Assembly (NCBI GenBank): GCA_030390025.1
Contig: CM059432.1
Span: 75,146,001-75,210,000, forward strand
Direction of reading: 5' to 3'
Origin: Squalus acanthias
Lineage: Eukaryota
Length of the DNA stretch: 64,000 bases
In this document: positions 4,034 through 60,000 of the stretch, in pieces
How positions within the stretch are numbered: the stretch's first letter is position 1
Layout: each line of letters begins with the position of its first letter
Program-made: the position numbers and the translations under genes
The notes under the pieces: model-generated
Databases searched by the model: none
Told to the model about the DNA's origin: nothing
The model's input: the letters and a program-made list of their open reading frames with translations, nothing else

Positions 4034-4437
4034 TCATTTCTTATTCCCCTTCTTTTCCTTCTTAGTCTTAACCTCGAGAGACTTACTGGGTTCCTTTTTA
4101 TCTTTCACATGCACATGTTTTGCACCTCTGAGCTTCTCAAAAAACTTTTTAAACTTCTCTTTCAAGGACTCAGGTTTTTCCTTTGCTTTCACTTTCTCAA
4201 CCTTGTCTTTCTTTTCTTTTTCCGACCCCTTTTTCCTCATTTCAGGTTTGTTCACAGGCTTTTCTTTTTTCAGTTTCACCACTTTCAACTCTGCCTTTTC
4301 TTTCTTTGCTTTCTTAGACTTCTCTTCCTCAGCAGCTCTTATAGGTTTGGGTCTCTTAGCTTTCTTCTTTGTTTCAGCTTTCTTCTTTGTTTCAGCTTTC
4401 TCTTTTGCCTTTTTAAGCTCTCTCAATGCTTCCTTCA
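4034..4437 (-). CDS. ASPH: Junctin terminal exon, Lys/Glu-rich (KEKE-type) luminal tail (V)KEALRELKKAKEKAETKKK...KKEKKGNKK*
   Basis: Acceptor ttttgattttccttgaaatattaag|TG; 134-codon open frame ending TGA at 4034-4036. It begins VKE..ELKK.KEK like the recalled human junctin VKELTKEELKKEKEKPES. Confidence 0.9.
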
Positions 4438-4990: not shown

Positions 4991-6885
4991 AAATTGAAAA
5001 AGGGAAAATGGAATATGAGCACAAACTAGCGAAAAATATAAAAACGGATTGTAAAAGCTTCTATAGGTATGTGAAAAGGAAAAGACTGGCAAAGGTAAAT
5101 GTAGGTCCTTTACAGTCAGACGGGAGAATTTATAATGGGGAATGAAGAAATGGCAGAGAAATTAAATAAATACTTTGTTTCTGTCTTCACGGAGGAAGAC
5201 ACAAAAAACCTCAAAAATGAGAAAACCGAGGGTGTGGCGAGAATGAGGAACTTAAAGAAATTATTAGTAGTAAAAAAACAGTACTAGCAAAATTAATGGG
5301 ACTAAAAGTCAATAAATCCCAAGGACCGGATGACCTACATCCTAAGGTTTTGAAAGAGGTGGCCATTGGGATAGTGGACGCATTGGTTGTCATCTTCTGA
5401 AATTCTGTAGATTCGGGAACGGTTCCTGCAGATTGAAAGATAGCAAATGTAACCCCGCTATTTAAGAAAGGAGGGAGAGAGAAAACGGGGAACTACAGAC
5501 CTGTTAGCCTCACATCAGTCGTTGGGAAAATGCTGGAATCTATTATAAAGGAGGCAATAACTGGGCACTTAGAAACTAATAGTAAGATTGGGCAGAGTCA
5601 ACATGGATTTATGAAAGGGAAATCCTGTTTGACAAACCTATTGGAGTTCTTTGAGGATGTAACTAGTGGAGTAGACAAAGGGGAACCGGTAGAGGTGGTG
5701 TATTTGAATTTTCAGAAGGCCTTCGATAAGGTCCCACACAAGAGGTTGGTGAACAAAATTAGGGCACATGGAATTGGGGGTAATATACTAGCATGGATTG
5801 AGAATTGGTTAACAGACAGAAAATAAAGAGTAGGGATAAACGGGTCTTTTTCAGGATGGCAGGCTGTGACTAGTGGAGTACCGCAAGGATCGGTGCTTGG
5901 GCCCCAGTTATTCACAATCTATATCAATGATTTGGATGAGGGGACTAAATGTAACATTTCAAAATTTGCTGATGATACAAAGCTAGGTGGCAGTGTCAGT
6001 TGCGAAGAGGATGTGAAGAGGCTTCAAGGGGATCTCGACAGGCTCAATGAGTGGGCGAGAACATGGCAGATGGAATATAATGTGGATAAATGTGAAGTTA
6101 TCCACTTTGGTAGAAAAAACAGAAAGGCAGAGTATTTCCTAAATGGTGAAAGATTGGGGAATGCAGATGCTCAAAGGGACCTGGGTGTCCTTGTACATGA
6201 GTCACTCAAAGTGAGTGAATGTGCAGGTGCAGCAAGCCATTAGGAAGGCAAATGGTATGCTGGCCTTCATTACAAGAGGATGAGAGTACAGGAGTAAAGA
6301 AGACTTACTTCAATTATATTAGGCCTTGGTGAGACCACACCTGGAGTACTATGTACAATTTTGGTCTCCTTACCTAAGGAAGGATACACTTGCCATTGAG
6401 GGAGTGCAACGAAGGTTCACGAGATTGATTCCTGGGATGGCAGGACTGTCGTAGGAGAAGAGATTGAGTAAACTAGGCCTGTATTCTCTTGAATTCAGAA
6501 GAATGAGGGGGGATCTCATTGAAGCATACAAAATTATTACAGGGCTTGATGTGGTGGATGCTGGGAGAATGTTTCCCTTGGCTGGGGAGTCTAGAACCAG
6601 GGGCCACAGCCTCGGGATAAAGGGTAGGCCATTCAGGACTGAGATGAGAAGAAATTTCTTCACAAAGGGTGGTGAATCTTTGGAATTCTCTACCCCAGAG
6701 GGCTGTGGAGGCTCAGTCATTGGGTATATTCAAAACAGAAGTCGATAGATTTCTGACTAGCAAGGGCATCAAGGGATATGGCGATAGGGCCAGTGAATGG
6801 AGTTGAGGCAGAAGATCAGCCATGATCTCATTGAATGGCGGAGCAGGCTCGAAGGGCCGAATGGCCTGCTCCTATTTATGTTCTT
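4991..6885 (+). mobile_element. CR1 LINE, 5'-truncated, disrupted ORF2 (reverse transcriptase)
   Basis: Motifs [35 protein letters not shown] and FADDTK; stops and frameshifts; CR1 3' hairpin and TATGTTCTT tail. Confidence 0.95.
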
Positions 6886-14125: not shown

Positions 14126-14253
14126 TTCTGAATAGATGAAACTTTAAAAAAAACTTGTGGGAAAATGTTCCGCAGAAAATGTCTTTGCACACTAGGGCAT
14201 GATGGAACATATGCAATTGGTGGGAACTGCAATTCATTATTAATGGCCATATT

Positions 14254-14267
14254 CATGCAGTGCATGC
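14254..14267 (-). promoter_or_regulatory. GCATG + TGCATG (RBFOX-type) pair about 60-70 nt downstream of the junctin 45-nt exon
   Basis: The minus strand reads aaaGCATGcacTGCATGaat. Confidence 0.5.
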
Positions 14268-14324
14268 TTTCACAAATCCAAATCAGCCAACCAGTCTAGC
14301 AGTTACTGGACTTTAGCAAAGTAC

Positions 14325-14369
14325 CTTTTTCCTTAGACTTTTCCTTTGCTTTCACTTTTCCTCCCGGTT
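14325..14369 (-). CDS. ASPH: Junctin-specific short exon (E)PGGKVKAKEKSKEK
   Basis: Acceptor tttttccttcttctgactgatag|AA and donor AAAG|gtactt; 45 nt, phase 1-1. Position and basic composition correspond to the recalled mammalian junctin exon EGPSGVAKRKTKAK. It joins the terminal exon in frame (G|TG = Val). Confidence 0.82.
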
Positions 14370-15350
14370 CTATCAGTCAGAAGAAGGAAAAATACACTAA
14401 CATTTTCAATTAGTTTAAAAACTAACGTCAGGTTCAACACATTATTTACACAGGCCTGAACCTCTCTAATACCTAATCAATGAACAATTTTACAGATCGT
14501 CTTAAGGTAGCTTACAAATTGAAGGACCCACATGCAGAGTCCCCCTAAGGATAGGACAAAACATGATACCGAGTTTAGCTTTACATCAATGAAACTTACA
14601 TTATGCATGAAAATAATCCATACCTGGTTAATATATTGAATTTAGCATTAGATTTGTCAGATTTCTTTTGACATCAGATTATATGGCAAATGATTTTAAA
14701 ACACTGGTTATAGTTGGGGTAGAAAGCAGGAAGAAATAACAAAAAACCTCAATAATACAAGACATGCAAGAAGCTAGTGATGAAATTGCTTCCGAATAAA
14801 GTGAAACCCAGAGTCTGCAAACCATATCATTCCTCAAAGATGACACCGGAAACCTTTGTAACTAGCATTTTGTTCTGAACCCAGGAAGTTATCACTTCTA
14901 ATCAGTTTCTTCATTAAAAAAAAATAAAACACGAAGGGCAGACAGTAACTGCATTGTCAGGCTAAAATCTAACATTTAATGGCCTGGAGAGTCCAATAAT
15001 CCTTTAACAATGAACATTTTGGTCACTTTTTAAATGACCAGCAGGAAACAACCCAAAATTATTTCACATCGTGCCTATACCCAAGCAAAATTTTTGACTC
15101 CCATCAGTCTGGGATGAATTCCACTCCACAGGCAAAACAGCAGAGTAAACCAGTTCTCCCTCATGGTTTTTTACATGACCTAAGGGACAACAGTTTGTCT
15201 TAGAGTCTGAAACCTGTTGTCATTACACTATACGTTTACACTGTATTCAACAATGAGAAAATGCTTTCACCAGATAGCTTTACTTTGACATCAGTGTATT
15301 GTTTCTGTTCATTATTAGATTGGTATGCTTCGCCAAGTGATGAAAACTAT

Positions 15351-15717
15351 GGCCCGGATTTTGCTGTGAGCGGTGAAGAAACGGTTTTTGCCATTCACCT
15401 TGTGTACAGTTGCCCACAGACTTTTTTTAGCAGGCTTGTCAGCAGAGACTGCCACTCATCTGCCTGTTTGAATTTGGCGCCTCTCACGGGGATCTGTGGT
15501 ATCTGAGCAGGAGTAGCAGTAAGGAGGCTAATCAATCAATCAATCAGAATACTGCAACAGCGCAGCCTGTGGAGGAGCAAAGCATCACTGACAGCAACTT
15601 CCAAATTTCTGCATTTAACTGCACATGTGCGGACGCCAGAAGTTGCGGTCAGTTTTACCCAATAATAACGGCGAGCACCAACAGCCTCGCCGTTATTAGT
15701 ACAGCAAAATCCAGACC
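15351..15717. mobile_element. PIF/Harbinger-type MITE
   Basis: TIRs GGCCCGGATTTTGCTGT / ACAGCAAAATCCAGACC; 3-bp TSD TAT at 15348-15350 and 15718-15720. Confidence 0.75.
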
Positions 15718-16567
15718 TATGTTTTCCCCTGTAATGGTTCTTCTATTTCCACTTAGCATTTCCAAGTAAGAATCAGAAACATCTTTGCTATGTAACACTG
15801 TTGCCACTTCAACTTTCACAAGAAATATTACTATCCTAATAATTCAATAATTTTTGAATATATTTTATGTGTTTTAGAAAACTAAAAGCCCCAGCCCAGA
15901 TCAGCAAACTGCAAACAACCGAGACTGTACTAAGAACCTTTCTGGTCTGTACTGCGCAGTTTCATGCCTGTCAGGACTTTTGCCAACTGAGCCATTGCTA
16001 AAATTCTACGTATTTTGATGCCAATCACGTGCAAAGGATGAAAATTAACAAGCATAACCTGGATGAAATCAGATGTCGAGAATAGTTGTATCATTCAAAC
16101 TTTTGACAGTCTACAGGTTGACAAAGTGATCAAACATAAATCAACATCAAGTAATCGGCTGACTAAAATGAGCTCCATTTTAAGCCATTTATATATACTG
16201 TAACACTGGAAGATCTTGCCACTTTTTGTAGTTTCCTTTATTATATATGAAGCACAGGCAAATTACAACATTCTTGCAAATCCAAAATATACTCCAGATG
16301 AGCATGATGCAACCACAAATCCAGTGGGCAGACAAGCCACCTATAACTATTCATTAAGTACTTTTTTTGAATTTTGAGCCAGGAATTTCATAGCCAACTG
16401 AAACACTGGATTGAAAAAAGTTTAAAATGGAAATATCAAAAGCAAATATGGATGAAGTATAGATCATAAATTCAAGAAAATGCATCTAATTTCAGAATGA
16501 AGCATGAAGTGAGTAGACACAGTTCCTTACATATGAAGTGAAAACTCAACTTCTGGCCATTGTAGTA

Positions 16568-16984
16568 CAGGAAACTTTAGTTTATCCGGCACCCAAATAT
16601 CCGGAATTCTCGCTTAACCGGCAAAAATCATCCTCCGAAAACTCCTCTCAAATAACCGGCAATGTTGCCGAGTTGCAGTCGAGTCCCCGCGAACGCCGAG
16701 TGCTCCGAAAAATCCTCTCAAATAACTGGCAATGTTGCCGATCCCGAGTCCGAGTCCGAGAACGCCGATTTAGTCAGTAGGGGTACTTTTCAAAAGTGCC
16801 ACTACTCGGCCTCCTGGCGCTGTCGCAAGTCCGAAACATTGCAGTAGCAGGAGTAGATTCTCCCGCGCTGCTTGGAGTCTCTTTGTTAAAAATAGCCTCT
16901 GTAGATATAACTCTGTTATCCGGTACTTTCGATAAACCGGCACCACGCCGGTCCCGTCTATGCCGGATAAACGAAAGTTTCCTG
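16568..16984. mobile_element. Tc1/mariner (pogo/Tigger-like) MITE, copy 1
   Basis: 24-bp TIRs CAGGAAACTTTAGTTTATCCGGCA / TGCCGGATAAACGAAAGTTTCCTG; TA on both sides; second copy at 39069-39429. Confidence 0.9.
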
Positions 16985-17958
16985 TATTAAGCCATTACAA
17001 AGGTGCAGTGCGGAGAAATTGTGAACCTCTCAAATCATCCCGGGAATATTAAGTTTTCACCTGTTTTTAAAAAATAAATTGTGATAAACCATTCAGAACA
17101 TTTACAAACCATGCTGAGATAGAACACGTGTACACACAGATGTGTTGCATTTAAAAAAAGAGTTTTCCTCTTCGGTGGATGGTTGTTGACTGCAACCTAA
17201 AGGATTTGTAGAACCATCTTTGCATACTTGTTGATACAAAATTATTTCTATCTAAATCAGACCATCATACATACACCAAAAAAAACTTCAAAAAAAGGAG
17301 AGGGGAGGAAACCTGCTTCAAGGTCAATGTAGATCTCAAAACATAAACCACCTGAAATAAAAATACATTTGCTCACAATTAGTTTTGTTTTATATAGCAC
17401 GTGTCATAATATTCATACAAAAAGCCATTGCAGGACTACAATAAGAAATCTCCTAGATTGTGTGTTCTCCCTCTTTGTATCCAGTCTAAACTTATTGCAC
17501 AAAACACACACTTTTGTTCACTAGAGATACAAGATTCTCCAGGAATAAACTGCGCTACTAATGAATATGGAATTTTTTTTAAACTCTTGCTCAAGTTTTT
17601 ATACAATTAACAGTAATGATTTCCATGACCTGAACTAATAAGCACTATTTTAGCAAAAAATTATGTGCTTTTTTATATAAAGTGCTCGAAGCTACTGAGC
17701 TCTGGCACTAGATAGTGCAGTCTTTCTTTGGAACATAGTCCCTCATTAGAATACTGAAAGACCTTTCAGCTGTTGAAGTATACATACCTTTACAGAAAAA
17801 AAGTTTTCCATTACGAGGAACCATGCCAATTAAAAAGATCTTGACGTACTTCAACTATACTGGTTGGATGGCAGTGTGCTATTGCTCTAATGTGTTGTGC
17901 CACAGAGTGGCAAAGTGCACAATTGCATCAAAGACTTCTCCAGATAGCAAAAATCTCA

Positions 17959-18024
17959 AAGGTGAAGGGCTGGATAAAGTGAAAGGCTGGATAAAGTCAA
18001 GGTGAAGGGCTGGATAAAGTCAAG
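17959..18024 (+). repeat. Three-copy micro-tandem of GTGAA(G/A)GGCTGGATAAAGT
   Basis: Directly visible. Confidence 0.8.
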
Positions 18025-18254
18025 TAATCAATCTAGTTTTGCACACCTATCAAATGATAGAGCAGCAGTAGTGAGCAGCTAAGCGCAGGCCTCCAGCCCA
18101 TCGCCTCTACAGCAGAAAAGCACCACTGCAGGTGGGAGGAAAAACTACAATCTAGTTTGTTGCAGAAACAAAAACCAAGTGCTTTACATTGCAAAGTGCG
18201 GTTATGTTTCTAGTTAGGGCCAAGTCTCACTACACCATATACAAATTCAGCTGG

Positions 18255-18585
18255 CAGTTCAGTACAGGGAGTACTCCATTGTTAGAAGTGCCCTCCTTTG
18301 AATAAGATGTTACACTTAAGCCTAGTCTCCCTATTCAGATGGAAGTCAAAGATCCCATGGCACTATTGGAAGAAATGCAGTACATTTTCTTGTTGTCCTG
18401 GCCAACATTCTTCCCTCAACCAACACCACCATCTCAATACAGTGTTTATGGATCCTCAATGAACAAAAGGGCTGCCATGTTCACTTGCATAGGAACAGTA
18501 ACTGCATTTTATAGTCATTATTGTATGTGAATTGCTTTGGAACATACAGACATGTAAAAGGTGCTTTAAGACTGATTCTTTCTTT
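18255..18585 (+). mobile_element. Decayed Deu-domain SINE
   Basis: aaagatcccatggcactatt...tgtcctggccaacattcttccctcaaccaacacc...gctttggaacat...aaaggtgct; homologous to 7641-8035. Confidence 0.65.
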
Positions 18586-19099
18586 CTTTATAGCATCCCT
18601 AGCTGAGTTTACCCAATGCTCACAAAATTCCAACACCACCATTCTGAAGCTAGATTTTAACACAATGTGAAAGAGCAGTCCAGGGTGACTCAGATATTTC
18701 TCTCCTCTCGATTCAGAAGCAGCAGCCTACAGGCATCTCCCCTCCGCAATGCCCCAGACAAGACCAGGAACTCACCAAATGAAAGATCACGAATGTGAAC
18801 TTGTTCCCTGATACTCCGATAGGCGTTCATGTTGGATAATATTTTAAATGCTCAATTTCAGCTTGGAATTTTTTTTAAACAATCTGTTCCTTAAAGATCA
18901 GAAGATTTTCATTTGGCTCTACTGAACACAAATCTGCTGCTGTAACACTTCAAAGAAAGATGGTTCAGGTTCCAATAATTCTAAGAAAATAAGAAATTCA
19001 ACTGAAGGTTTTGGTCAAGATTCCAGTAACCAAAGGTAAAAAATCAAAATGGTGTTGGCTGATGAATTAGTAAATCTTGTAGATTACAATGAAGCAGCC

Positions 19100-19897
19100 C
19101 GTGCCACATGTGGTAAGACCTGGACAAGATTCAGACTTGGGCTGATAACTGGCAAGTAACATACGTGCCACACAAGTGCCAGGCAATGACCACCTCCAAC
19201 AAGAGAAAGTCTAACCACCTCCCCTTGACATTCAACGCATTAACATCGTCAAATCTCCCACCATCAACATCCTGGGGGGTCACCATTGACCAGAAACTTA
19301 ACTGGACCAGCCACATAAATACTGTGGCTACAAGAGGTCAGAGACTAGGTATTCTGCGGCGAGTGACTCTCCTCCTGACTTCCCAAAGCCTTTCCACCAT
19401 CTACAAGGCACAAGTAAGGAGTGCGATGGAATACTCTCCACTTACCTGGATGAGTGCAGCTCCAACAAGACTCCAGAAGCTCAACGCCATCCAGGACAAA
19501 GCAGCCTGCTTGATTAGCACTCCATTCACCACCTGAAACATTCACTCCCTCCACCACCGGCACACCGTGTACTATCTACAAGATGCACTGCAGCAACGTG
19601 CCTAGCCTTCTTTGACAGCACCTCCCAAACCCGCAACCTCTACCACCTAGAAGGAAAAGGGCTGCAGGTGCATGGGAACACCACCACCTCCAAGTTCCCC
19701 TCCAAGTCGGAAATGTATTGCCGTTCCTTCATAGTCGCTGGGTCAAAATCCTGGAACTCCCTCCCTAACAACACTGTGGGAGTACCTTCACCACACGGAC
19801 TGCACCAGTTCAAGGCAGCGGCTCATCACCACCTTCTCAAGGGCAATAAATGCTGGCCTTGCCAGCGACGCCCACCTCCCGTGAATGTATAAATAAA
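19100..19897 (+). mobile_element. 3' fragment of a CR1/L2-group LINE of a different family from the main CR1s
   Basis: ORF ...GVTIDQKLNWTSHI...LGILRR...IYKAQVRSAMEY...IQDKA (RT thumb region); 3' end gggcaataaatgctggccttgccagcgacgcccac...gaatgtataaataaa. Confidence 0.8.
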
Positions 19898-20571
19898 TGA
19901 CAAGTACAGATTATAAGAATTAAAAGGAACTTGGTTGTCAAATTGTGCACAAGCAGGTTTGTTCTCTCAGCATAAGATTATGAGCACTCCCCGCAAATCC
20001 ACCCCCCCCCCAAATATAGATGAAAACTGGATATTCGTGTTCAACTTCAAACAAAACATTTAAGATTCAGAATGCACATTCCTCTATCCTTCCAACATTA
20101 GATTAATACTGTGGTTATGAAAGCAAATTTATACAGTCACACATTTAGGTCATTATTTCACTGATCTCTGGAGCAAATACCATAGCTTCAACTCAAGTGT
20201 GTAAAGGAAATAATTTGGCATACTTAAGTAAAAAGATAGTACATTTATTGGAGTATGTAAATAAAATATGTACCCCTGAAAAAAGTGAGTATTTAAATGT
20301 GAAAACCTTTTTGCTACAATAAAAATTGCACCATACCATTTGTTGCCCTCCTGTTCTGCACTGAACTGAATTCACATCAAATCTCTTTAACCCTGCATGT
20401 GCAATATTGGAAACAGTGCATCCTTCCCAAAGTTAAGCCAAAGCAGAACACTAATCCCACCACTGCTAGAAGCAAGTACCATTCCAAAAGAAATTCTAAA
20501 ACAAATGAATTTCCAATTAAATATTTCAAAAGTCTCATACTGCAGTACTTTTACAAACTATTTCAACTAAG

Positions 20572-22492
20572 AATTGAGGGATTAATTAAGAAGGGGAAAA
20601 CAGAATACGAGAGTAAGCTTGCAGGGAACATAAAAACTGACTGTAAAAGCTTTTATAGATATGTGAAGAGAAAAAGATTAGTGAAATCAAGCATAGGTCC
20701 CTTGCAGTCAGAATCAGGGGAACTTATAATGGGGAACAAAGAAATGTCAGACCAATTAAATATATATTTTGGTTCTGTCTTCACAAAGGAGGACACAAAT
20801 AACCTCCCAGAGACGTTGGGGAACATAGGGTCTGATGAAAGGGAGGAACTGAAAGAAATCAGTATTTGTAGGGAAATGGTGTTAGGGAAATTGAAGGGAT
20901 TGAAGGCCGATAAATCCCCAGGGCCTGATAATCTACATCCTAGGGTACTTAAGGAAGTGGCCCTAGAAATAGTAAATGCATTGCTGATCATCTTCCAACA
21001 TTCGATGGAATCTGGAACAGTACCCATGGATTGGAGGGTAGCTAATGTTACCCCACTATTCAAAAGGGTGGTAGAGAGAAAACAGGGAATTACAGTAAGC
21101 CTGACATCGGTAGTGGGGAAAATGCTAGAGTCCATTATAAAAGATGTAATAGCTGAGCACTTGAAAAACAGTGACAGGATCGGATAAAGTCAACATGGAT
21201 TTACAAAAGGTAAATCATGCTTGACTAATCTACTGGAATTTTTTGAGGATGTAACTAGTAGAATAGATAAAGGGAGAACCAGTAGATGTGGTGTATTTGG
21301 ACTTCCAAAAGGCTTTTGATAAGGTCCCGCATAAGAGATTAGCGTGTAAAGTTAAGGCACATGGGATTGGGGGCAAGGTATTGACTTGGATAGAGAACTG
21401 GTTGGCAGACAGAAAGCAAAGAATTGGAATAAACGGGTCTTTTTCCCCCGAGTGGCAGGCAGTGACTAGTGGGGTACCGCAGGGATCGGTCCTTGGACCC
21501 CAGCTATTCACAATATATATTAATGATCTAGACAAGGGAACTAGATGTAATATCTCCAAGTTTGCAGACGACACAAAACTGGGTGGGCGTGTGTGCTGCG
21601 AGGAGGATGCCGAGAAACTCCAGGATGATTTGGACAGGTTGGGTGATTGAGCAGAAGCGTGGCAGATGCAATATAACGTGGATAAATGCGAGGTTATCCA
21701 CTTTGGTGTCAAAAACAGAAAGGCAGATTATCTGAATGGCAATAGATTGGGAGAAGGGGAAGTGCAACGAGACCTGGGTGTCCTTGTGCACCAGTCGCTG
21801 AAGGTAAGCATGCAGGTGCAGCAGGTGGTTAAGGCGGCAAATGGTATGTTGGCCTTCATAGTGAGAGGGTTTGAGTACAGGAACAAGGATGTCTTGCTGC
21901 AGTTGTATAGGGCCTTGGTGAGACCACACCTTGAGTACTGTGTGCAGTTTTGGTCGCCTTATCTGAGGAAGGATGTTCTTGCCATGGAAGGAGTTCAGCG
22001 AAGATTCACAAGGCTGATACCTGGGATGGCAGGAATGATGTATGGAGAGAGATTGGGTCGATTGGGCTTATACTCGCTGGAGTTTAGAAGAATGAGAGGG
22101 GATCTCATTGAAACTTATAAAATTCTGACAGGACAGGACAAACTCGATGCAGGAAGGATGTTCCCGATGGTCGGGGAGTCCAGAACCAGGGGTCACAGTC
22201 TAAGTATAAGGGGTAAGCCATTTAGGACAGAAATGAGGAGGAATTTCTTCACCCAGAGAGTGGTGAACCTGTGGAATTCTCTGCCACAGAAGGCAGTAGA
22301 GGCCAATTCATTAAATAGATTCAAGAAGGAGTTGGATATATTTCTTAAGGCTAAAGGGATCAAGGGATATGAGGAGAAAGCAGGGACAGGGTACTGAATT
22401 TGGATGATCAGCCATGATCGCATTGAATGGCGGAGCAGGCTAGAGGGGCCGAATGGCCTACTCCTGCTCCTATCTTCTATGATTCTATGATT
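20572..22492 (+). mobile_element. CR1 LINE, 5'-truncated, relatively well preserved
   Basis: Long ORF2 segments 20572-21187, 21288-21650 (FADD) and 21666-22397; (TTCTATGA)n tail. Confidence 0.96.
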
Positions 22493-22499
22493 TGCTGAG

Positions 22500-23751
22500 A
22501 AGTACATCTGCTTAAATACCCCTTTCATCGAAAATGGTCCCATTGTGGAATATGGGCATCAAGAAATTTTAGATCTATTACCCTCAAATACTATTCTCTT
22601 ATGTACTCTCCATTATATCTGGCAATCCATACCTATGTGCATAACATTAAATTTAGAACAGAATACAAGTGTTTGAGAACTAGGTCTCCTATTTCTAAGG
22701 CTAAATTATTGCATTTTTTAATATAAAAATTTATATTAAATATAAATTTGCCATCAAATCCATGAAGGGAGCGGAGTTATCCAGCATTAGAGTTGCGATT
22801 TCCAGTTCCTTCTACAAGAATGTACACTAGAGCATTGTGCAGTTTAATGCACCTAAAAAGGTTACTAAATAACAGCAAGCAAAATCAAATCTTTACATTT
22901 CATTTATTCAAGTATCATTTCACGGAACCAAGAATGTCAAAAACATTACATTAGACATGCTAATTTAGTATGATTTTACGCAGGATACCAACATGCACAC
23001 TTCTCATGCTATGTTGACATTACAACCAGAAAATCTTGATACAAGAACTATTCACATATTAGTATACAGTACAAACAAAAAAAACAAATAAATTCTTATG
23101 TATTGAAACAGTAACTAGATCAATATAAAAGTCTTATTTACATGATGCAAACATGCTAAGTTTCTTTTGTATAATTATGCACAAGATCTATTTCCAAGCT
23201 GTAATCAATTCAGTTTGTTAGTACTTTATCATTAATGTGCCAACCTGATGGCGAACACTAATAGCTCCCTATCGGTTAACATTAGTGCAAAAACACACAG
23301 GAAAAAAAAGCAAAAGCACAAATTTTGCTGCATAAAAGCAGATACACAAGAACTAAGTTACACTCACGTGTAAGCATTTATCCCCTCCCTATGGCAAACA
23401 GCCACAGAAAGACTACCGTAGGTTGTAAATCCAGATAATTTATAACAAGATTTCATATATACATCAAGGTTTCATGTATACAATCAACAGTCCATATGGG
23501 TTAGTTTATTAAAAGGTGTTGCACATATTTTGTTACTGTCCATTGCTGCCGTCTGTAGTACTACAGTGCTCTGACGAGCAGTTTAACTGTGCATCTTAAA
23601 ACCCATTTATTAAAATCACATAACACCTTAACTTCAATAGACTTCCATTTTTTTTCCACCGGATCCAATTTTATTTGTGCGTCTCTTTAAAGTAACATTT
23701 GTTTCTTTTTAATATCTTCCCCCAACTTAATGTAGGATTTTAGAATGACTG
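22500..23751 (-). other. ASPH: Probable 3' UTR of the acidic terminal-exon isoform
   Basis: TE-free AT-rich stretch after the TAG. Minus-strand AATAAA at 23670-23675, 23606-23611 and 23505-23510. Confidence 0.45.
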
Positions 23752-23996
23752 CTATTGGTTCTGTAAATCCAGGATTACACAATTTTCTTTTCCCTGAACC
23801 CCTTCATTCTCTGACGTACCAGCAACATCCTCTGATGCTTCATTTTCTTCTTCTTCTAGTATTTCAAAAGGCGTCATTACATCATACAGAAATGAGAGGA
23901 AACCATAAACCCAATCTGAGGATTCCTCTGTTATAATATCTAGGACTTCCTCGAGTGTATCAATTTGTTCATTACTACCATCACCTTTAGTGAGGC
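23752..23996 (-). CDS. ASPH: Alternative acidic exon, either terminal or spliced at an internal donor (exon end 23820): (G)LTKGDGSNEQIDTLEEVLDIITEESSDWVYGFLSFLYDVMTPFEILEEEENEASEDVAG|TSENEGVQGKENCVILDLQNQ*
   Basis: Long polypyrimidine tract then gtgtag|GC. Open frame of 2+243 nt to TAG at 23752-23754. The internal donor GCTG|gtacgt gives a 177-nt phase 1-1 cassette. It resembles the recalled mammalian ASPH cardiac-isoform exon (GLTKDGSNENIDSLEEVL...DWFYGFLSFLYD...CVILDLHNQ). Confidence 0.9.
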
Positions 23997-24734
23997 CTAC
24001 ACAAGAATAAAAAGGAAAAGGAGAGAAAAGAAAGAAGTAGTCAGACAGAAATGGAAGAATATAGAACAGCAGGTGCTACGTTAGGTGTCCCACATCTGAT
24101 CAACACGCATATTTACTGGAAAACAGGGATGTGAATATCCAAGAGTCACAGCTTAAAATCACATCACTGCTTGTTACATAAAGAATTCTGGTTCTTCCTT
24201 CTTCTACTCCTCTCTTTTTCCACCCCCGTCCCCAAAGAAAAAAAAAACTACTTTTGCATTCTCAACCACTGAGTGAAGGCAAAGATTCTATTGAACAAAG
24301 TACTTCAATTAAACATTTTATTCAGAATATAAGTATGACAGCCCAAAAATAAACAACAGGAGGACCAGAATTCTAACTGAGGTAACAGCTACTAGATATA
24401 CAAGTTAGGAAGTGTACTCACTTGGATTTGGCGACCCTAATTTTTGCCACCTGTACAGTAATAACTAGAGCCATAGAATCCAGTTGGGTACAATATACAA
24501 CATGTACATTTTGGTCCACAATGTTCTAAAATATTTGAAATATAATTAACAAGGCTTATGTAACAGGTGTTTTTAGTTACGACCAGATCTAATGCATCAT
24601 CAGTGAACATACATTTTAGAGCATTGCGGTTCCAATTGAAACCAGTAAAAAAAACTCAAGACTGTGCATTGCAACCAAAACAACTTAGATTATATCTGTG
24701 ACAAGAGGTTTGTTGGATTTTCATTCCAGCCATA

Positions 24735-26675
24735 AGGGAACAATTGAGGGTAAGGAAAGAGGCATACATTAAGTGCACAGACAGCAGGGGAGTGCATGAT
24801 AAGAGAATATGAAAAGATTAGGAGAGAAGTCAAAAAAAACAATTAGGGAGGCAAAAAGGAACTATGAAATTAAATTATCAAGGAACATAAAACAAAATAG
24901 TAAAATATTTTATAGGCACATCAATAAAAAAGGTTGGGATGGGAATAGGGTCATTAAGGGATAGTCAGGATAATACCACAGGTAATGACAGAGAGATGGC
25001 AGAAATATTAAATTATTTTGCTTCAGTATTTACCAGGGATATAGAACAGGTGGACATGACATTGGATGATGAGATTAATAATGAGATAAGTGCAATTAAA
25101 ATAGGGGATATATTAAATAAATTAATCAAACTCAGGATAAAACCCCTGGTCCAGATGGATTGCATCCACGCATTTTAAAAGAATCTAGGGAAGATATAGC
25201 AGAGGCATTACCATGCATATTTAATAATTCGTTAGAAAAAGGTATACTGCCAGAGGACTGGCAGATAGCTAACGTAATACCAATATTTAAGGGGGATAGA
25301 ACATGTCCAGGGAATTAGACCAGTCAGCTTAACATTGGTGGTAGGAAAAATAATGGAATCCCTACTAAAAGAGAAAATAGAACATCTAGAAACCAAAAAT
25401 ATAATAAAGAAGTGTCAACATGGATTTCAAAAGGGAAAGTGTTGCTTGACCAACCTTATTGAATTTTTTGAAGAGGTAACAGAGAGAGTAGACAATGGTA
25501 ATGCAGATGTAATTTATCTGGATTTTCAAAAGGCCTTCGATAAGCTACCCCATAATGATGAACAAGGTCAGAGAATGCGGAGTCAGGGGACAAGTAGCAG
25601 AATGGATTGCTGGCTGGCTTCAGGACAGAAAGCAGAGAGTAGGAGTAAAGGGTAGCTATTCACAGTGGCAGAAAGTGGGTAGTGGTGTTCCACAAGGATC
25701 AGTGCTGGGACCACTGCTGTTCACAATTTACATTAACGATTTAGACTTTGGAATCAAAAACAATTTCTAAATTTGCAGATGACACCAAATTGGGCAGGAT
25801 AGTCAATACTGAGGAGGACTGCAACAAGTTACAGGAGGGACATTAATAAACCTGTAGCATGGGCATATAATTGGCAAATGAAGTTCAAAACAGATAAATG
25901 TGAGGTATTACATTTTGGTAGGAAGAATAGGGAGGTTACTTATCACTTGGAGGGTGCGAGTCTAGGTGGGGTGCAGGAACAAAGGGATCTAGGAGTACAA
26001 ATATACAAATCACTAAAAGTTGCGACACAGGTTAGCAAGGCCATAAATAAAAAAGCAAACCAAGCACTAGGGTTTATTTCTAGAGGGATAGAATTGAAAA
26101 GTAGGAAAGTTATGCTAAACCTGTATCGAACCTTGGTGCTCACCATATTATAAAAAAGGATATAGAGGCACTGGAGAGGGTGCAGAGAAAATTTACAAGG
26201 ATGATACCAGAAATGCGAGGGTATACACATCAGGAAAGGATGGAAAGGTTGGGTCTCTTTTCTCTTGAAAAAAGGCGGCTGAGGGGTGACCTAATAGAGG
26301 TCTTTAAAATTATGAACAATTTTGATAGAGTGGATAGAGAGAGAATGTTTCCACTTGTGGGGGAAGAGCATAACTAGAGGCCATCAATATAAGATAGTCA
26401 CCAAGAAATCCAATAGGGAATTCAGAAGAAACTTCTTTACCCAAAGAGTGGTGAGAATGTGGAACTCGCTACCACAGGGAGTGGTTGAAGCGAATAGTAT
26501 AGATGCATTTAAGGGGAGGCTAGACAAGCATATGAGGGAAAAGGAAATAGAGGGTTATGCTGACAGATTTAGATGAGGAAAGACGGGAGGAGGCTCATGT
26601 GGAGCTTAAACGCTGGTATGGACTGGTTGGGCCGAATGGCCTGTTTCTGTGCCGTATATCCTATGTAATCTATAT
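24735..26675 (+). mobile_element. CR1 LINE, 5'-truncated, frameshifted
   Basis: [41 protein letters not shown]; 3' hairpin gggccgaatggcctgtttctgtg. Confidence 0.93.
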
Positions 26676-28234
26676 AGGTTCTGGAAGGAACATACAAAAG
26701 TAGACAGAAAATAAAGTAAACAGAAGAGAATACAAATAATTACTCTGCTCAAAATAGATAACTATTAATCTCAGCAAAAGTTATTACACATCATCCTAAT
26801 GGAATACTGGTGCATTGCATTTAAACCTCTAATGCCAAACAGAATGATACAGATGTGAAGCATTAAGTTGGAAGAATTAACTAATAGATTTTGTAAATCT
26901 ACTTGAGGTTCAGAGAAGCTTTCATTTATCCTGGGGAACACTGAAAACTACGACTTCTAAATTGTATTTAACATAGATTCTGCAATTTCAGTTCAGGTTT
27001 CTTACCTGCAGTAACTAACATTGCAGAATCCCTGTTGGTGAGCTATATGAAATGCAACCATACTTATCACGCCTAAAAAACTACATTTTCTAATCACATT
27101 AGGTAACAATTCTGAAGTCTTAATGTTGAGCTTTAAAACTGCAGCAGACTTGTGATGGACTGAGCAGCTTATCCTCATTATGTTGCACATAAAACTATTC
27201 ACAAAAATATTACATACTTAGAGTATTGCACTTCAATTTACCAATAATAAATGTAACATAATAGCTTCTTGCCGTTCCAATTGTTTTATTTACCAATGAA
27301 AACAAATCCCTTAAATAGCATTTCTGCATCAAAAATATTTAGTTGAGACTAAGGAGTAATATTTTTTGATACATTTCCATTACATTTTTTCCCGTGGTGC
27401 CAGCAAATTCATTAAACTGTTACTGATAGCAGCCCCAATACAGTAAATGAGGTGGTGCTGCTACCTCCAGGAGATTGTGTACCATCAAAAGGGGATTGTC
27501 CACAGGTGCCTCTAGATGCAACAATGCCAAAACTGCAACATAAACCAGGGCCATCAACAGCCATGATTCATAGACCTATGGAGTGGTATTGCAGGCTTCA
27601 GCCTCGAGACACCCCAATGAGCCAGGTACAGCATCTAGATACATAGTGCAGAATCACAATTTAAAAAAAGTAAATCCTGCTGTGTGGATTTTCTGTTGTT
27701 TCAGCTGCTGTGGCATTTGCTGACAATATAGAAGAGGCAGTTTCTGCAACACATTCTTTAGCTGGTCCTGCAGAACTGCTTCCTAAATGGTCTTGCAATA
27801 GTAAGGTGCCATAAATTTCCAAACTATGTGCAGAGGACAATTTTTAAAATCTACAAATAGAATTTTAATGGCAGAATTATTAATTTTTTTTTTAAATGTG
27901 GTGTCAAAAACTGCATATTCTATAATATAAAAGTTTTTTAAATGCTTACAAGCTGCACAAATGGACAAAAGCAGAAAATAATCTTAAGACAGATCTTTGT
28001 AAATATCCAATTTACTTACACTTTAAAAAGTTTTGTATCTGTAGCAAATTACACAAAAAAAACCTGAATGGCAACCTATACGGAGTTTATTTGCTCCACA
28101 TGGGCTGCATACAATCTCATGGCCAGAATTTTGTAGTTACTGTTGAATAGGAATATGGATCTTTGGATGTGTGTCTTTTTTGGGCCCCAGTGTACTTGAG
28201 AGAATGTTGTTTGGGAGGGTGATCATCTCTTCAA

Positions 28235-28430
28235 CCATCTTAAAACTGTGTCCTCTGGTTACTGACCCTCCCTGCCAGTGGAAAGTGTTTCTTCTTATTT
28301 ACTCTATCAAAAACTGTCATAATTTTGAACACCTCTATTAAATCTCCCTTTAACCTTCTCTGCTCGAGAGAACAATCTCAGCTGCTCTAGTCTCTCCACA
28401 TAACTGAAGTCTCTCATCCCTAGTACCATT
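28235..28430 (-). mobile_element. CR1 3' ORF2 fragment
   Basis: Minus strand agagaaggttaaagggagatttaatagaggtgttcaaaattatg (RLRGDLIEVFKIM-like). Confidence 0.7.
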
Positions 28431-29059
28431 CCATTACTGATTGGCGACCTAAAGGGTTGATGTGGATGTTAAAGTATGAGATGCAAGATCTTTGATATTT
28501 CATTGCCATGTGAACTAGAGAGAGAATGCTATGCTGTCCCACTTGCTCTATACTGTTCTGAACATGTATACTTTAGAGGAGCCTGGACATTTCCTTGGAG
28601 CACCCATTTTAATTTTCTTTAACAGTGCACCTATGTCAGCAAGTACTTGTGGGCAACTGCTCAAAATTCCAATTTTATTTCTTCTAAAAGGAAAAGACCC
28701 AAGTGAACAAGTTATTTTCCCTCTGCTTCACATATTCCTCACCATTCTGCTTCATTGCCTCTCTGCCCCCAGACTAGTCACTGCTTTTGAGAGAGAGAAA
28801 GAGAGAGAGAAATTCCTCCTTCATCCAACTGTCCTGTTGGGAGCAGTAGGCTCTCTTAATGTTACCAAGCTATACGCAAAAGTCACCTGACTGTAGAACT
28901 GAAAAAGGGAGAGAGAGAATTTACGTAGATTCAGAATCTGAATGGTTGCAATGAACATCAAGGATATAATCACGAGTGAGCCTATCAGAGGGGAGTCTGC
29001 AATTATTTTTGCTACGTTTTTCTTTTTTAAAACTGTATTGACAGAACTTCATATGCTGA

Positions 29060-29175
29060 TGGGGTTATATGAAGAGGGGTGGGAGGAGGCTCGTATGGAG
29101 CATAAACACCGGCATGGACCAGTTGGGCTGAATGGCCTGTTTCTGTGCTATAGATTCTATGTTATTTTATGTAAC
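29060..29175 (+). mobile_element. CR1 3'-terminal fragment
   Basis: gggaggaggctcgtatggagcataaacaccggcatggaccagttgggctgaatggcctgtttctgtg; same end as 26580-26675. Confidence 0.75.
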
Positions 29176-29230
29176 TGGACTAGTTTCAGCAGGAGAGGTG
29201 TCAGTTTAAGGCGTTTGTTTTTTTTAAAAA

Positions 29231-29606
29231 GTCATTCTCAGGACATGGGCATCGCTGGCTAGGCTGGTATTTATTGCCCATCCCTAGTTGCCCCGAGAAG
29301 ACGGTGATACAACTGCATGGCTTGCTAATCCACTTCAGAGGGCCAAGTTGATGCAAGACTGGAGTCATATATAGACCAGACTTGGTAAGGACAGCAGGTT
29401 TCCTTATCCAAAAGGACATTAATGAACCAGTTGAGTTTTATCACAATTGGATAGGTTTATGGTCACATTTAAAAACAAACTAATACCAGCTTTATATATC
29501 CAGATTTTTTTTTAATTGTGAAAAACTGAATTCAAATTCTCAAACTGCCATTTGAACTCAGGTTCTCTGGATTACTAGTGCAGTAACATAACCACTATGC
29601 CACCGT
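29231..29606 (-). mobile_element. tRNA-derived SINE whose 3' tail matches the LINE at 19100-19897
   Basis: A-box-like TGGCATAGTGG (29592-29602) and B-box-like GAGTTCAAAT (29550-29559); tail cttctcggggcaactagggatgggcaataaataccagcctagccagcgatgccca. Confidence 0.75.
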
Positions 29607-29994
29607 AGAGACGTGAGGAACTCAGGTGGGTAGCCACCGTGTTGTGGCTTTGCTGGATTCATATTGCTACTTGAATCTCCTTAGCAGAGATTAGAGTCTG
29701 ATGATTTGGACTCTTCCTCGGCGAGTTGAGATGGGGATACGGCAAGCTGGAACCTTCTGGATTGGCCAGAGACTTTGTCGATGCATCCTCCAATGAGCCG
29801 GAGCATAGCCCTCCCAACAAACGTGAGGCATACCCCAGTCAGGAAATGGTAATGTAGGAACTCAAGAAATGCCAAGTGGTCTGGAACCCATTTATAGAAG
29901 CCCACATGACCCAGGGACATTCCACACAGCTGAGACCACCTCCACTGAAGTCAGAATGAGCCACAAACTCTGCCACTGCTCCACAAAAGACAAT

Positions 29995-30656
29995 GGGGTA
30001 GAGTTTCCGTTTTCGACTCAATCGGGAAACTGGGCGCAAATTGCCGTGTTTTCCGAAGTGAAGCTCAAGCTTGCATAATCACAAACATAAAATCTTCCAT
30101 GAACCAGCGCAACATAGTGGAACAATCCTTTATTTCTTTTTCTTTGCATTAAAAAATATTCCTTGATGTATTTAAGAGTGGTAAGCTGGTGCAGCTTTAT
30201 TAATCCAGCTGAAAATGGGTTTATCACAAAAAATAAGAGTGTCTAGTCCTCTACCAGTGGTAACGGATTTTAATTCACCGAACAGGATTTAAAACTGTAC
30301 TGAACCATTTACAAATTTCAATGGTGTACACGTCAGGTTTTTTTTAGTAAATTAAATAATTTTTAAATATGTAAAAACTTCTAATACGTGCCTACTAGTG
30401 CCTGTGCGCCTAAAAAAACTCAATTTGAAGAAACTCCTCGAACGCCCGCAAATGTGGAAACTCGCGATGCTCATTATTTCGATCTGGGGGCGTAGCCGCC
30501 TTCCAACACAATATTTTTTTTAAAAATCAGCGTTAAAGATCACGGAAACGCAATTTATGCTCGTCGTAACTTACGGTTAAAATTCAGCGATCTTTTGCAC
30601 TGGTTTGGCCGATTGCAGTCGGATTGCGCTGATGAAACCAGCGGAAACTCTAGGCC
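29995..30656. mobile_element. PIF/Harbinger-type MITE
   Basis: TIRs GGGGTAGAGTTTCCG / CGGAAACTCTAGGCC (13/15 match); 3-bp TSD AAT at 29992-29994 and 30657-30659; CpG-rich interior. Confidence 0.75.
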
Positions 30657-31095
30657 AATGCTTCAATCCGACAAAGCCCATCACATTTGTAAGACCCTCA
30701 ATAACTCCCGAAACATTGGCAAATTATCCGGACGCCCAAACAGCACACTGTTTTCAGCATATTTACCACTCCTACGCACCAATGTACACCTACGTACTGT
30801 GAAAACGTCAATGACTTTGTAACTTTACATGTATGATTTTTCTTAATGTATTTGGAGAATTTTTCCCCCCCCCAATCCCAATGATACGGATGTATATTCC
30901 TCTGCCTATTAGAAAATACATTACACATACTTATTTGCTCTTTCTCCCAGAAGCATTATTTCAATGTCCTTGCTTTTCCCAGTAGTCACAATTTTTAGTG
31001 TGCATGGAGAGGGAAAAAAGTTACAAATTGTTCAACGTAGATCACATAATAATTAGCAGCATTTAAAAGTAAGTGTCACACCAACCAAAGTCAGT

Positions 31096-31138
31096 CATGC
31101 AACTGCCAAACAAAGATGTGAATTTAAAACGCCATGCA
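31096..31138 (-). promoter_or_regulatory. Two TGCATG (RBFOX-type) intronic splicing elements just downstream of the GC donor
   Basis: Plus-strand catgca at 31096-31101 and 31133-31138, within 70 nt of the exon end. Confidence 0.5.
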
Positions 31139-31164
31139 AAATAAAAATCAGATAATATGCTTGC

Positions 31165-31233
31165 CTAGCAAAATTTTGGCATCCTCCACATCAAAATCAC
31201 CATCTCCGTCAGCATCATAGACTCCAAGTTTCC
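31165..31233 (-). CDS. ASPH: 69-nt exon with luminal EF-hand-like loop: (G)KLGVYDADGDGDFDVEDAKILL(G)
   Basis: Acceptor ttctttcacttctaaatag|GG and donor CTAG|gcaagc (GC donor); 69 nt, phase 1-1. It matches the recalled KLGIYDADGDGDFDVDDAKVLLG. It is absent from the ORF track because it is too short. Confidence 0.95.
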   Translation of the reverse strand, partial: GNLESMMLTEMVILMWRMPKFC

Positions 31234-31549
31234 CTATTTAGAAGTGAAAGAAGGAAAACAATTATATTACCCTTTGAATTAGCTTTCACTCCAATGAATG
31301 CACAGCATGTAAAAACATTAACCAGAACAGTTAAAGCTTTGGATGATCACAAGTTGAGAAATGTACAAAGCGTAATTACAACGTATTCTTCAAACAGTCA
31401 TACTCCACATAGCTCCAATACCAGAGGGATAACCATTGGGACATCAGCCTCTTTCAGAAAGATCAGGCAGGATCTCCATGACATTCCACTATAGCTGTAT
31501 ATTTTATTTAATCCCTCCAATATAAACACAACTTTAAGACCTATATCTT

Positions 31550-45243: not shown

Positions 45244-45288
45244 CTTGTAACACCTCTGAAAAGTTATAACGAAATTCCTTTGCTTTTG
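45244..45288 (-). CDS. ASPH: 45-nt cassette exon (A)KAKEFRYNFSEVLQ(G)
   Basis: Acceptor tttttatcatgcatgcag|CA and donor CAAG|gtagga; 45 nt, phase 1-1. It matches the recalled 15-aa junctin/junctate insert AKAKDFRYNLSEVLQG. Confidence 0.93.
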
Positions 45289-46145: not shown

Positions 46146-46295
46146 CCAGAACATCTTCGTAATCCACCAAGTCAAACCAAACAACAGCTACAGATGACCA
46201 GACACCCAGTAAAGCGATTATCATGAACCATGTGAAGAATGAGCTTCCAGAAGGTCCATCGCTTTTCTTCCCATTTTTATTCGAGCTGTGCTTAT
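46146..46295 (-). CDS. ASPH: ASPH/junctin/junctate shared exon encoding the cytosolic neck and transmembrane helix: (D)KHSSNKNGKKSDGPSGSSFFTWFMIIALLGVWSSVAVVWFDLVDYEDVL(G)
   Basis: Acceptor gtttcttctttttcag|AT and donor CTGG|gtaag; 150 nt, phase 1-1. The translation closely matches the recalled ASPH/junctin TM segment SFFTWFMVIALLGVWTSVAVVWFDLVDYEEVLG. Confidence 0.97.
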
Positions 46296-57089: not shown

Positions 57090-60000
57090 GTCATAGTCTT
57101 AGAGTTATACAGCACAGAAAGAGGCCCTTCGGCCCATCGTGTCCGCGCCGGCCATCAAGCCCTATCTATTCTAATCCCATTTTCCAGCACTTGGTCCGTA
57201 GCCTTGTATGCTATAGCGTTTCAAGTGCTCATCTAAATGCTTCTTGAATGTTGTGAGGGTTCCTGCCTCTACCACCCTTTCAGGCAGTGAGTTCCAGATT
57301 CCAACCACCCTCTGGGTGAAAAAGTTTTTCCTCAAATCCCCTCGAAACCTCCTGCCCCTTACCTTGAAACTATGCCCCCTGGTTATTGACCCCTCTACTA
57401 AGGGGAAAAGTTCCTTTCTATCTTATCCTATGAGGGCGCTCCGCTTCTTGCTTGAACAGAGGCCCAACCAGTCCCCATCCACCACCACCCTCCTCCGCCT
57501 GGCTGAACTTGTTCTCACAGTGAACAACTTCTCCTTTGACTCCACTCACTTCTTCCAAATCAAAGGTGTTGCTATGGGAACCCGCATGGGTCCTAGCTAT
57601 GCCTGCCTTTTCGTGGGATATGTGAACAGTCTTTGTTCCAGTCCTACTCAGGTCCCCTCCCTCACCTCTTTCTCCGATACATTGATGACTGTATCGGTGC
57701 CGTTTCCTGCTCTCGCCCTGAACTAGATAATTTCATTCACTTTGCTTCCAGTTTCCACACTTCCCTCACCTTCACATGGTCCATCTCCGACTCTTCCCTT
57801 CCTCGACTTCTCCGTCTCCATCTCTGGGTACAGGTTATTGACAAACATTCACTACAAGCCCACTGACTCCCACAGCTACCTGGACAACACTTCCTCCCAC
57901 CCCTCCTCCTGCAAGGACTCTATTCCATTCTCCCAGTTTCTCCGTCTCCGCCGCATCTGCTCTGACGATGCCACCTTTCATACCAGTACTTCTGACATGT
58001 CTTCCTTTTTCCCTCAACCGAGGATTCCCCTCTACAGTGGTTGACACGGCCCTTGACCGTGTCCATTCTATCCCTCGCACTTCTGCCTTCACCCCTGCCC
58101 CTCCCTCCCGGAACCATGACAGAGTTACCCTTGTCCTCACCTTTCACCCCACCAGCCTCCACATTCAACGGATCATCCTCCGCCATTTCCAGCATGATCC
58201 CACCACCAAAAGCATCTTCCCCAAACGCATCTTCCCCACACCTCCCTTTTCAGCATTCCATAGGGACCGCTCCCTCCGCGACACCCTAGTCCACTCCTCT
58301 ATCACCCCCAACACCCCTTCCCCTTCGCCCGGCACCTTCCGTGCAAGCGCAGGAGATGCAACACATGCCCTTATACCTCCCCCCTTCCCACTGTCCAGGG
58401 CCCCAAACACCCCTTCCAGGTGAAACAGCGATTTACTTGTACTTCTTGCAATTTAGTATAAAGTATTTGCTGCTCACGATGTGGTCTCCTCTACATTGGG
58501 GAGACCAAACGCAGATTGGGTGACCGCTTTGCGGAACACCTCCGTTCAGTCCATAAGGGGGACCCTGAGCTTCCGGTCGCCTGTCACTTTAATTCACCGC
58601 TCCACTCCCACTCTGACCTCACCGTCCTCGGCCTCTTGCATTGTTCCACGGAAGCTCAGCGTAAGCTCGAGGAACAACACCTCATCTTTCGATTAGGCAC
58701 TTTACAGCCTTCTGGACTCAACATAGAGTTCAACAATTTCAGATCATAACCTCGGCCCCAAAATATATATATATCCCCCCACATGGCAGCTGTCTTTCAT
58801 TCTGCCAGCGCAATTTACACTTCATCTAGAGCCATCCTTTGTTTTTTAACCTGTCCCATTACCATCTCCTTTTGCCTTGAATATCTCGCCTCGTCCGCCT
58901 TCTATCCTATCACAGACCTCCCCTTTTGTTCTTCCATCCCCTCCCCCCTTTCTCAGCCTCTACACTTGCTTAAAAATCTGTTCCATTTCCTGCTTTTTTC
59001 CCAGTTCTGACAAAAGGTCATCGACCTGAAACGTTAACTCTGTTTCTCTCTTCACAGATGCTGCCTGACATGCTGAGTTTCTCCAGCATTTTCTGTTTTT
59101 ATTTCCTTTCTATCTACCCTATCTATGCCACTCATAATTTTGTAAACCTCAATCAGGTCCCCCCTCAGCCTTCTCTGCTCTAAGGAAAACAACCCCAGCC
59201 TGTCCAGTCTCTCTTCATAGCTGAAGCGCTTCAGCCCAGGTAACATCCTGGTGAATCTCCTCTGCACCCTCTCCAATGCAATCACATCCCTCCTATAGTG
59301 TGGCGACCAGAACTGCACACAGTATTCCAGCTGTGGCCTAACTAGCATTTTGTACAGCTCCATCATAACCTCCCTGCTCTTATATTCTATGCCTCGGCTA
59401 ATGAAGGCAAGTATCCCATATGCCTTTTTAACCACCTTATCTACTACCTGTCCTGCTGCCTTCAGGGATCTATGTACATGCACACCATGGTCCCTCTGAT
59501 CCTCTGTCCTTCCTAGGATCCTACCATTGTGTAATCCCTTGCCTGGTTAGTCCTCCCAAAATGCATCACCTCACATTTTTCAGGGTTAAATTCCATTTGC
59601 CACTGTTCTACCCACCTAACCATCCCGTCTATATCGTCCTGTAGCCTGAGGCTTCCCTCCTCGCTATTTATCACTCCACCAATTTTCGTGTCATCTGCAA
59701 ACTTACTGATCATCCCTCCTACATTCATATCTAAATCATTAATCTACACTACAAACAGCAAAGGACCCAGCACCGATCCCTGTGATACACCACTGGACAC
59801 AGGCTTCCAGTCATAAAAACAACCTTCGACCATCACCCTCTGCCTCCTGCCACAAAGCCAGTTTTGGATCCAATGTGCCAAATTGCCCTGGATCCCATGG
59901 GCTCTTACCTTCTTGACCAGTCTCCCATGTGGGACTTTGTCAAATGCCTTACTGAAGTCCATGTAGACTACATCAACTGCACTACCCTCATCCACACACC

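Follow-up and report, generated by a model that had tools for sequence, protein, structure and literature searches.

ASPH exons in the window

The window, i.e. the whole 64,000-nucleotide stretch of Squalus acanthias DNA analysed here, contains the 5' half of ASPH on the minus strand, located by tblastn with shark models and by checks of exon borders. All the internal ASPH exons placed are multiples of three in length and of phase 1, and the optional exon described below falls, both in order and in phase, between the membrane and EF exons of ASPH and the junctin exons. The features are the following (positions are those of the window):

46146..46295, minus strand: transmembrane exon, 150 nt, phase 1, common to triadin (PF05279)
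45244..45288, minus strand: optional 45-nt exon between the membrane and EF exons (tblastn, borders)
31165..31233, minus strand: EF exon with a DxDGDG EF-hand-like loop, 69 nt, phase 1, within Pfam PF05279, without a counterpart in triadin
23820..23996, minus strand: cassette part of the composite optional exon, 177 nt, phase 1 at both ends, coding for an acidic linker, an amphipathic EESSDWVYGF helix and an acidic run (borders, database models, triadin profile, hydrophobic moment)
23752..23819, minus strand: read-through part of the same exon, with donor gtacgt at 23819 and 22 codons ending in CVILDLQNQ, followed by TAG; the conserved C-terminus of a short isoform
22890..23751, minus strand: 3' UTR of the read-through form, with AATAAA at 22908, transcript end at about 22890 and a probable poly(A) tail
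14325..14369, minus strand: 45-nt junctin exon, probably equivalent to mouse Asph exon 4a, judging by its position and a GPGG/EPGG motif
4034..4437, minus strand: terminal K/E-rich (KEKE) exon of junctin, equated with exon 5a, 56% K+E, 133 codons to TGA

The name of mouse exon 4a comes from the part of PMC4356957 dealing with Asph exons, and the exon 4a peptide from the corresponding part of 10.1101/2022.05.11.491401. Between 46296 and 64000 of the window, tblastn with shark models did not reveal a first exon of ASPH; it may be too short, too diverged, or located outside the window. The EF exon is closed by a non-canonical GC donor, TAG/gcaagc (31163-31165, minus strand), situated just upstream of the alternatively spliced region, and such a weaker donor could favour a regulated choice of exons. 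The KEKE exon comprises an 18-nt unit repeated 2.7 times (4358-4405) and is one six-residue unit longer than that of the Mustelus model. Many open reading frame fragments of reverse-transcriptase-like retroelements, which we take to be of the LINE type, lie in the introns (e.g. 5000-6750, 19100-19900, 21000-22500, 25100-26800, and 57200-61500), where the contig depth is very high.

The optional exon begins with an AG acceptor at 23996, preceded by a tract with 17 pyrimidines out of 20, the most pyrimidine-rich among the six acceptors scored, and sits within a stop-free stretch of 107 codons (24075-23755, minus strand). An internal donor, CTG/gtacgt, delimits the cassette of 23996-23820, a multiple of three with phase 1 at both ends; past this donor the frame continues for 22 codons up to TAG at 23754-23752. 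An exon of this design, with a strong acceptor, a phase-1 internal donor, and an in-frame read-through to a stop, had been described in an earlier note made from the letters of the window, and the sequence, borders and frame bear the description out. The poly(A) signals which the note placed after the stop are also present, as four AATAAA motifs at 23675, 23611, 23510, and 22908 (plain motif positions). Transcript contigs cross the first three and stop near the fourth.

Transcripts, database models and conservation of the optional exon

Four read sets presumed to be RNA (16 of 22 runs were so presumed) were assembled and aligned to positions 14200-31400 at 88% likeness. One of them, X1, gave a contig covering 22890-23994 at a depth of 70 (2-8 for the other X1 pieces listed), with 31 letters left unaligned beyond the acceptor and 22 past its far end, and X9, from a different organism and a different study, gave a contig covering 22904-23994 that also has 31 letters beyond the acceptor. 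The two contigs stop at 23994, which is the predicted position of the joint between 31165 and 23996 once shifted to the left, since the optional exon opens with GC, the same two bases as the donor that closes the EF exon. Without a joint, the alignment would have reached 23999. The far end lies ca. 13 bases past the AATAAA at 22908. These contig ends point to a spliced and polyadenylated read-through transcript in which the EF exon is probably joined to the optional exon and a poly(A) tail probably follows. The contigs of X1 and X9 cross the internal donor at 23820 unbroken, and no joint from this donor is present among the 15 joints listed (331 more were recorded) for the four presumed-RNA sets, in a table swamped by repeats. 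The bin of exon 4a (14369) has a depth of 0-2; given the repeats, neither the missing joint nor this low cover is evidence of absence. A third set, X8, has a loose end at 31164 continued by a sequence from outside the window, in frame and reading G-L-K-E-V-E-G-P-V, which by its likeness to models appears to be the start of ASPH exon 4, and would thus represent a form skipping both the optional exon and the exon at 14369. The X8 bin depths were also considered as cover of the cassette only, and were dropped, as repeats can yield the same numbers.

A search seeded with the exon found 88 ASPH-type proteins, from chimaera to mammals, and a mammalian query gave 121 matches, 120 of them listed. Altogether, the exon is present in 231 of the 370 non-triadin proteins retrieved, again from chimaera to mammals. 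Their exits were counted by pattern, in searches seeded with the exon and in one case with its tail, so the counts are not usage rates: 129 proteins read through, 24 pass from the cassette to exon 4a and on to the K-rich exon, 18 from the cassette through exon 4a to ASPH exon 4, 29 from the cassette directly to exon 4, 5 from the cassette directly to the K-rich exon, while 26 have other exits. Both the internal and the terminal use of the exon claimed in the earlier note are thus found among database models, and the position of the internal donor is kept from sharks to mammals. The read-through form is represented, for example, by XP_078396562.1 (Cetorhinus maximus X2). The cassette with a junctin tail is found in XP_078072367.1 (Mustelus asterias X22), XP_072897902.1 (Hemitrygon akajei X11) and XP_042202818.1 (Callorhinchus milii X1), and the cassette followed by ASPH in XP_031222505.1 (Mastomys coucha X5). 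All these database isoforms are predictions; they have the same exon, the same two exits and the same downstream partners as in the shark, with no substantive difference, and products derived from the window are identical to shark models at 166 of 168 and 262 of 289 residues, the latter in M. asterias. The exon and its isoforms are therefore not new discoveries, being already present in predicted annotation of the RefSeq and Ensembl type. A camel model with the exon bears the name 'isoform l'. The human isoform l curated in RefSeq, of ca. 203 residues, presumably ends in the optional exon and corresponds to the read-through form. In six models (set labels P0168, P0403, P0069, P0070, P0088, and P0089) the membrane exon or the 45-nt exon is joined directly to the optional exon. 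Such models, which skip the EF exon, have the exact order found in triadin and may be gene-prediction errors.

The peptide of the exon is 99% identical to that in the C. maximus model, and its cassette part is 100% identical to that of M. asterias. Cassette copies from bat, ground squirrel, macaque, eagle, pigeon, Xenopus, and gar share 42-46 of 58 residues (72-79%) with the shark peptide. This is close to the conservation of the membrane exon (35-41 of 49) and well above that of the KEKE exon, for which only 34-49 of 133 residues (26-37%) are identical in four junctin-type references. This difference between the exon and the junctin tail, in comparisons of shark with bony vertebrates, indicates strong selection on the exon. 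Moreover, 17-18 of the 21 residues of the tail past the donor are kept in macaque, pigeon, and gar, and this speaks for a read-through tail that is both translated and under selection.

Relationship of the optional exon with triadin

A kinship of ASPH with triadin is already on record, since the two share the Pfam domain PF05279 (Asp-B-Hydro_N, aspartyl beta-hydroxylase/triadin N-terminus), which covers the membrane and EF exons and is present on nearly all the triadins retrieved. Its 66-position model misses the optional exon, and the region common to ASPH and triadin exceeds the Pfam record. A starting profile of 13 short ASPH isoforms was searched against 1.84 billion representatives and picked up two triadins of gar, one of them aligned through the optional exon. 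The triadin set (n = 121; 120 of the 313 hits of a follow-up search were listed) comprises proteins of gar, sturgeon, paddlefish, bichir, turtles, many birds, and koala; it is bird-heavy, with Neff of about 2, and has no named member from cartilaginous fish, lamprey, or invertebrates.

A triadin HMM was built from 37 distinct post-membrane segments of 119 of these 121 proteins, with the membrane helix and the acidic run cut away. The window gave 2,823 six-frame stretches, and the optional exon was the sole significant match of this HMM among them (E 4e-7; next best 0.45). The shark segment scored 28.8 bits vs 1.4 for the reversed peptide, which retains the periodicity, and vs at most 12.7 in 5,000 shuffles (4,412 scored, none reaching the score of the shark segment), the latter being a lenient control in which the helical periodicity is destroyed. 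In hhalign, the ASPH exon matched the triadin segment at 97.5%, with E 5.6e-12, over 26 columns; the significant match is short, 26-33 columns. A reciprocal ASPH HMM hit the motif in 119 of the 121 triadins, and the pairwise identity of the shark exon to six triadins was 10-11 of 26. The likeness of the exon core and its acidic run to the segment following the triadin membrane helix, pointed out in the earlier note, is therefore a significant profile similarity that holds even without the membrane helix and the acidic run.

In both genes the core EE[ST][ST]DW.YG follows a phase-1 entry and precedes an acidic run, the distance from the split codon to the helix motif being 22-23 residues in triadin and 27 for the shark exon. 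As regards the intron phases, whose comparison had been proposed, the 5' border is of phase 1 in both genes: in human TRDN, according to the variant description in PMC7938306, intron 2 follows c.232 (c.232+2T>A = IVS2; 232 = 77x3+1). The 3' border of the triadin exon is probably of phase 1 as well, judging from protein models in which the acidic run is mostly followed by G, D, A, or V, residues with codons starting with G, and then by differing continuations. Triadin has the same succession as the ASPH form: an FDLVDY membrane exon, phase-1 entry, the EE[ST][ST]DW.YG helix, an acidic run, and K/E-rich exons. The two genes differ in that the helix exon is fixed in triadin (121 of 121 proteins, 119 by the strict pattern and 2 with one change) and optional in ASPH, that triadin lacks the EF-hand exon, and that the conserved read-through tail is established for ASPH and not for triadin. 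We infer from these features of sequence and order that the optional exon and the post-membrane exon of triadin probably share common descent. An origin before the duplication is the simplest reading, because the exon follows the PF05279 domain at one and the same place both in ASPH of cartilaginous and bony fish and in bony-vertebrate triadin. Among the listed hits with a named organism, in the searches with the exon and for triadin, none came from lamprey, hagfish, or an invertebrate; most hits of the starting profile carried no name.

Many bird, turtle, and gar triadin models continue past the acidic run with G-I-C/H/Y, which resembles read-through of a phase-1 donor. In gar and sturgeon triadins (set labels P0280 and P0296) an optional insert of 32 residues with two cysteines lies between the membrane and helix exons, in the place occupied in ASPH by the 45-nt and EF exons. 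A likeness of the gar insert to the 45-nt exon of ASPH was weighed and then rejected, because it is not retained in the sturgeon copy.

Products of the exon and competing explanations

Composite last exons in general can be skipped, spliced via an internal donor, or end the transcript. The optional exon is best explained, with a probability that we put at about 0.75, as an ancient composite exon of this kind, internal or last, in ASPH, junctin, and junctate, sharing an ancestral exon with the post-membrane exon of triadin. After the EF exon it would be either skipped or included, and upon inclusion the phase-1 donor at 23820 would compete with 3'-end formation near 22890. Read-through would give a short type II membrane protein of the ER/SR, composed of the membrane helix, EF loop, amphipathic helix, acidic run, and the CVILDLQNQ end, while the use of the donor would lengthen junctin, junctate, or full ASPH by an insert of 59 residues. 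The best-supported product is the short read-through membrane protein of ca. 160-220 residues.

The earlier note had put forward a different product, a junctin of triadin architecture arising by splicing of the internal donor to the exons at 14369 and 4437. The in-silico chain of the transmembrane, 45-nt, EF, and cassette exons with those two is open across all six exons to the stop, and it is this product whose 262 of 289 aligned residues are identical to the M. asterias model; the membrane, EF, 45-nt, and KEKE exons also read open without the cassette, as in ordinary junctin. The order of cassette, 14369, and 4437 is predicted in 19 full-length models from 12 named species and one further record (the 24 pattern hits less 3 without the membrane helix, 1 without the EF motif, and 1 with a short tail), namely Mustelus, Hemitrygon, Callorhinchus, Xenopus, four turtles, an eagle, Antechinus, a bat, and a ground squirrel. 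Together with the donor position kept from sharks to mammals, these models speak for such a product; nevertheless, it is unlikely to be the main one of the exon, made in striated muscle and bridging calsequestrin and the ryanodine receptor. Gene models assembled from short reads may combine exons seldom present on one transcript; in addition, the isoform is absent among the joints listed for our read sets (with exon 4a hardly covered). In mouse heart, RT-PCR spanning Asph exon 1 or 1a through 5a yielded one junctin band, according to the description in PMC4356957, and junctin (ASPH exons 1/1a-2-3-4a-5a) is described with 5 or 6 exons, in human too, in the passages of PMC9192596 and PMC3363337 devoted to its structure, whereas the cassette form would have 59 residues more. 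The triadin architecture is likewise only partly borne out: the helix, acidic run, and KEKE tail agree, but the EF exon is retained, while a DxDGDG loop is found in none of the 121 triadins, and the proposed isoform is a junctin plus a triadin-type helix, not a copy of triadin.

It is also conceivable, though rather doubtful, that only the short read-through protein matters, the donor being a tolerated by-product and the cassette models rare splicing noise. The tail past the donor is indeed conserved like the cassette, and both long contigs, those of X1 and X9, read through. However, the donor is used at the same codon in chimaera, shark, ray, turtle, bird, marsupial, and placental models, with three different downstream partners, and sits where triadin models, once past the acidic run, switch partner. 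A convergent origin of the two acidic amphipathic helices, in place of shared descent, would account for the shortness of the significant match, with flanks that differ, and for the lack of the ASPH EF exon in triadin, and the leniency of the shuffled controls leaves it some room. It is, though, highly improbable, as the match occurs at the same place in two proteins already sharing the PF05279 membrane domain, the specific core, phase-1 entry, and subsequent acidic run are all kept, and the reversed peptide, with its periodicity intact, falls far below the genuine one.

In molecular terms, the exon would add, on the luminal side, a helix of negative charge, strongly hydrophobic on one face, followed by an acidic run. 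For three ASPH copies the hydrophobic moment of the best 18-mer was 0.50-0.58 (shuffle p 0.001), and for the best windows of three triadins it was 0.52-0.55 (p 0.002-0.01), with five windows tried per protein. We suggest tentatively, at somewhat less than even odds, that the amphipathic helix lies along the luminal leaflet, or else packs on a partner or on itself, thereby bringing the acidic run, and the KEKE tail where present, near calcium-release channels. AlphaFold placed helices at the position of the exon with low confidence (pLDDT 45.7, pTM 0.19), which gives no structural support for this mechanism. A sequence search of the PDB found only full-length ASPH (9fvu), aligned up to the EF exon, and the optional exon in no solved structure; Pfam gave no real match to the exon (best E 0.026). 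In the ESM Atlas, the exon alone gave only phage-type leads under 0.9, and the whole short isoform gave PF05279 chordate clusters, with Chordata as the commonest phylum.

In the open literature no study of the optional exon was found; the coverage of subscription journals was thin, and the original papers on the cloning of junctin and junctate may show the exon. The sources on junctin and triadin consulted, in their passages on these proteins, call the two structurally related, ascribe five or six exons to junctin, and do not mention there the optional exon or its likeness to triadin (PMC4356957, 10.1101/2022.05.11.491401, PMC9192596, PMC7938306, PMC9026860, PMC3363337, PMC2764345, PMC12816917, PMC3388061). 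One screen of CPVT, as described in the part of PMC3363337 concerned, sequenced only six junctin exons, and would therefore have left the optional exon out. The exon is thus real, strongly conserved, of dual use, and annotated, but apparently unstudied. The exon itself, every isoform proposed, and the kinship of ASPH with triadin are already known from public predicted annotation and Pfam; what is gained is an extension of this kinship past the Pfam domain, and a paralogue with which the post-membrane segment of triadin can be compared. That the exon defines an overlooked class of ASPH products, a short triadin-like membrane protein of the ER/SR and, in some muscles, a triadin-like junctin, seems to us possible but rather unlikely. 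Were it so, the helix exon would be the conserved core of the ASPH/triadin ancestor, far better kept than the junctin tail, the short protein could partly replace triadin or act at calcium stores outside muscle, and variants responsible for arrhythmia or heat illness could hide in the exon, missed by screens of the junctin exons.

Diverged copies of the exon, some with K/E-rich tails, are present in ASPH-like models of bony fish (set labels P0145, P0147, P0184, and P0256), which suggests relaxed selection in duplicate copies.
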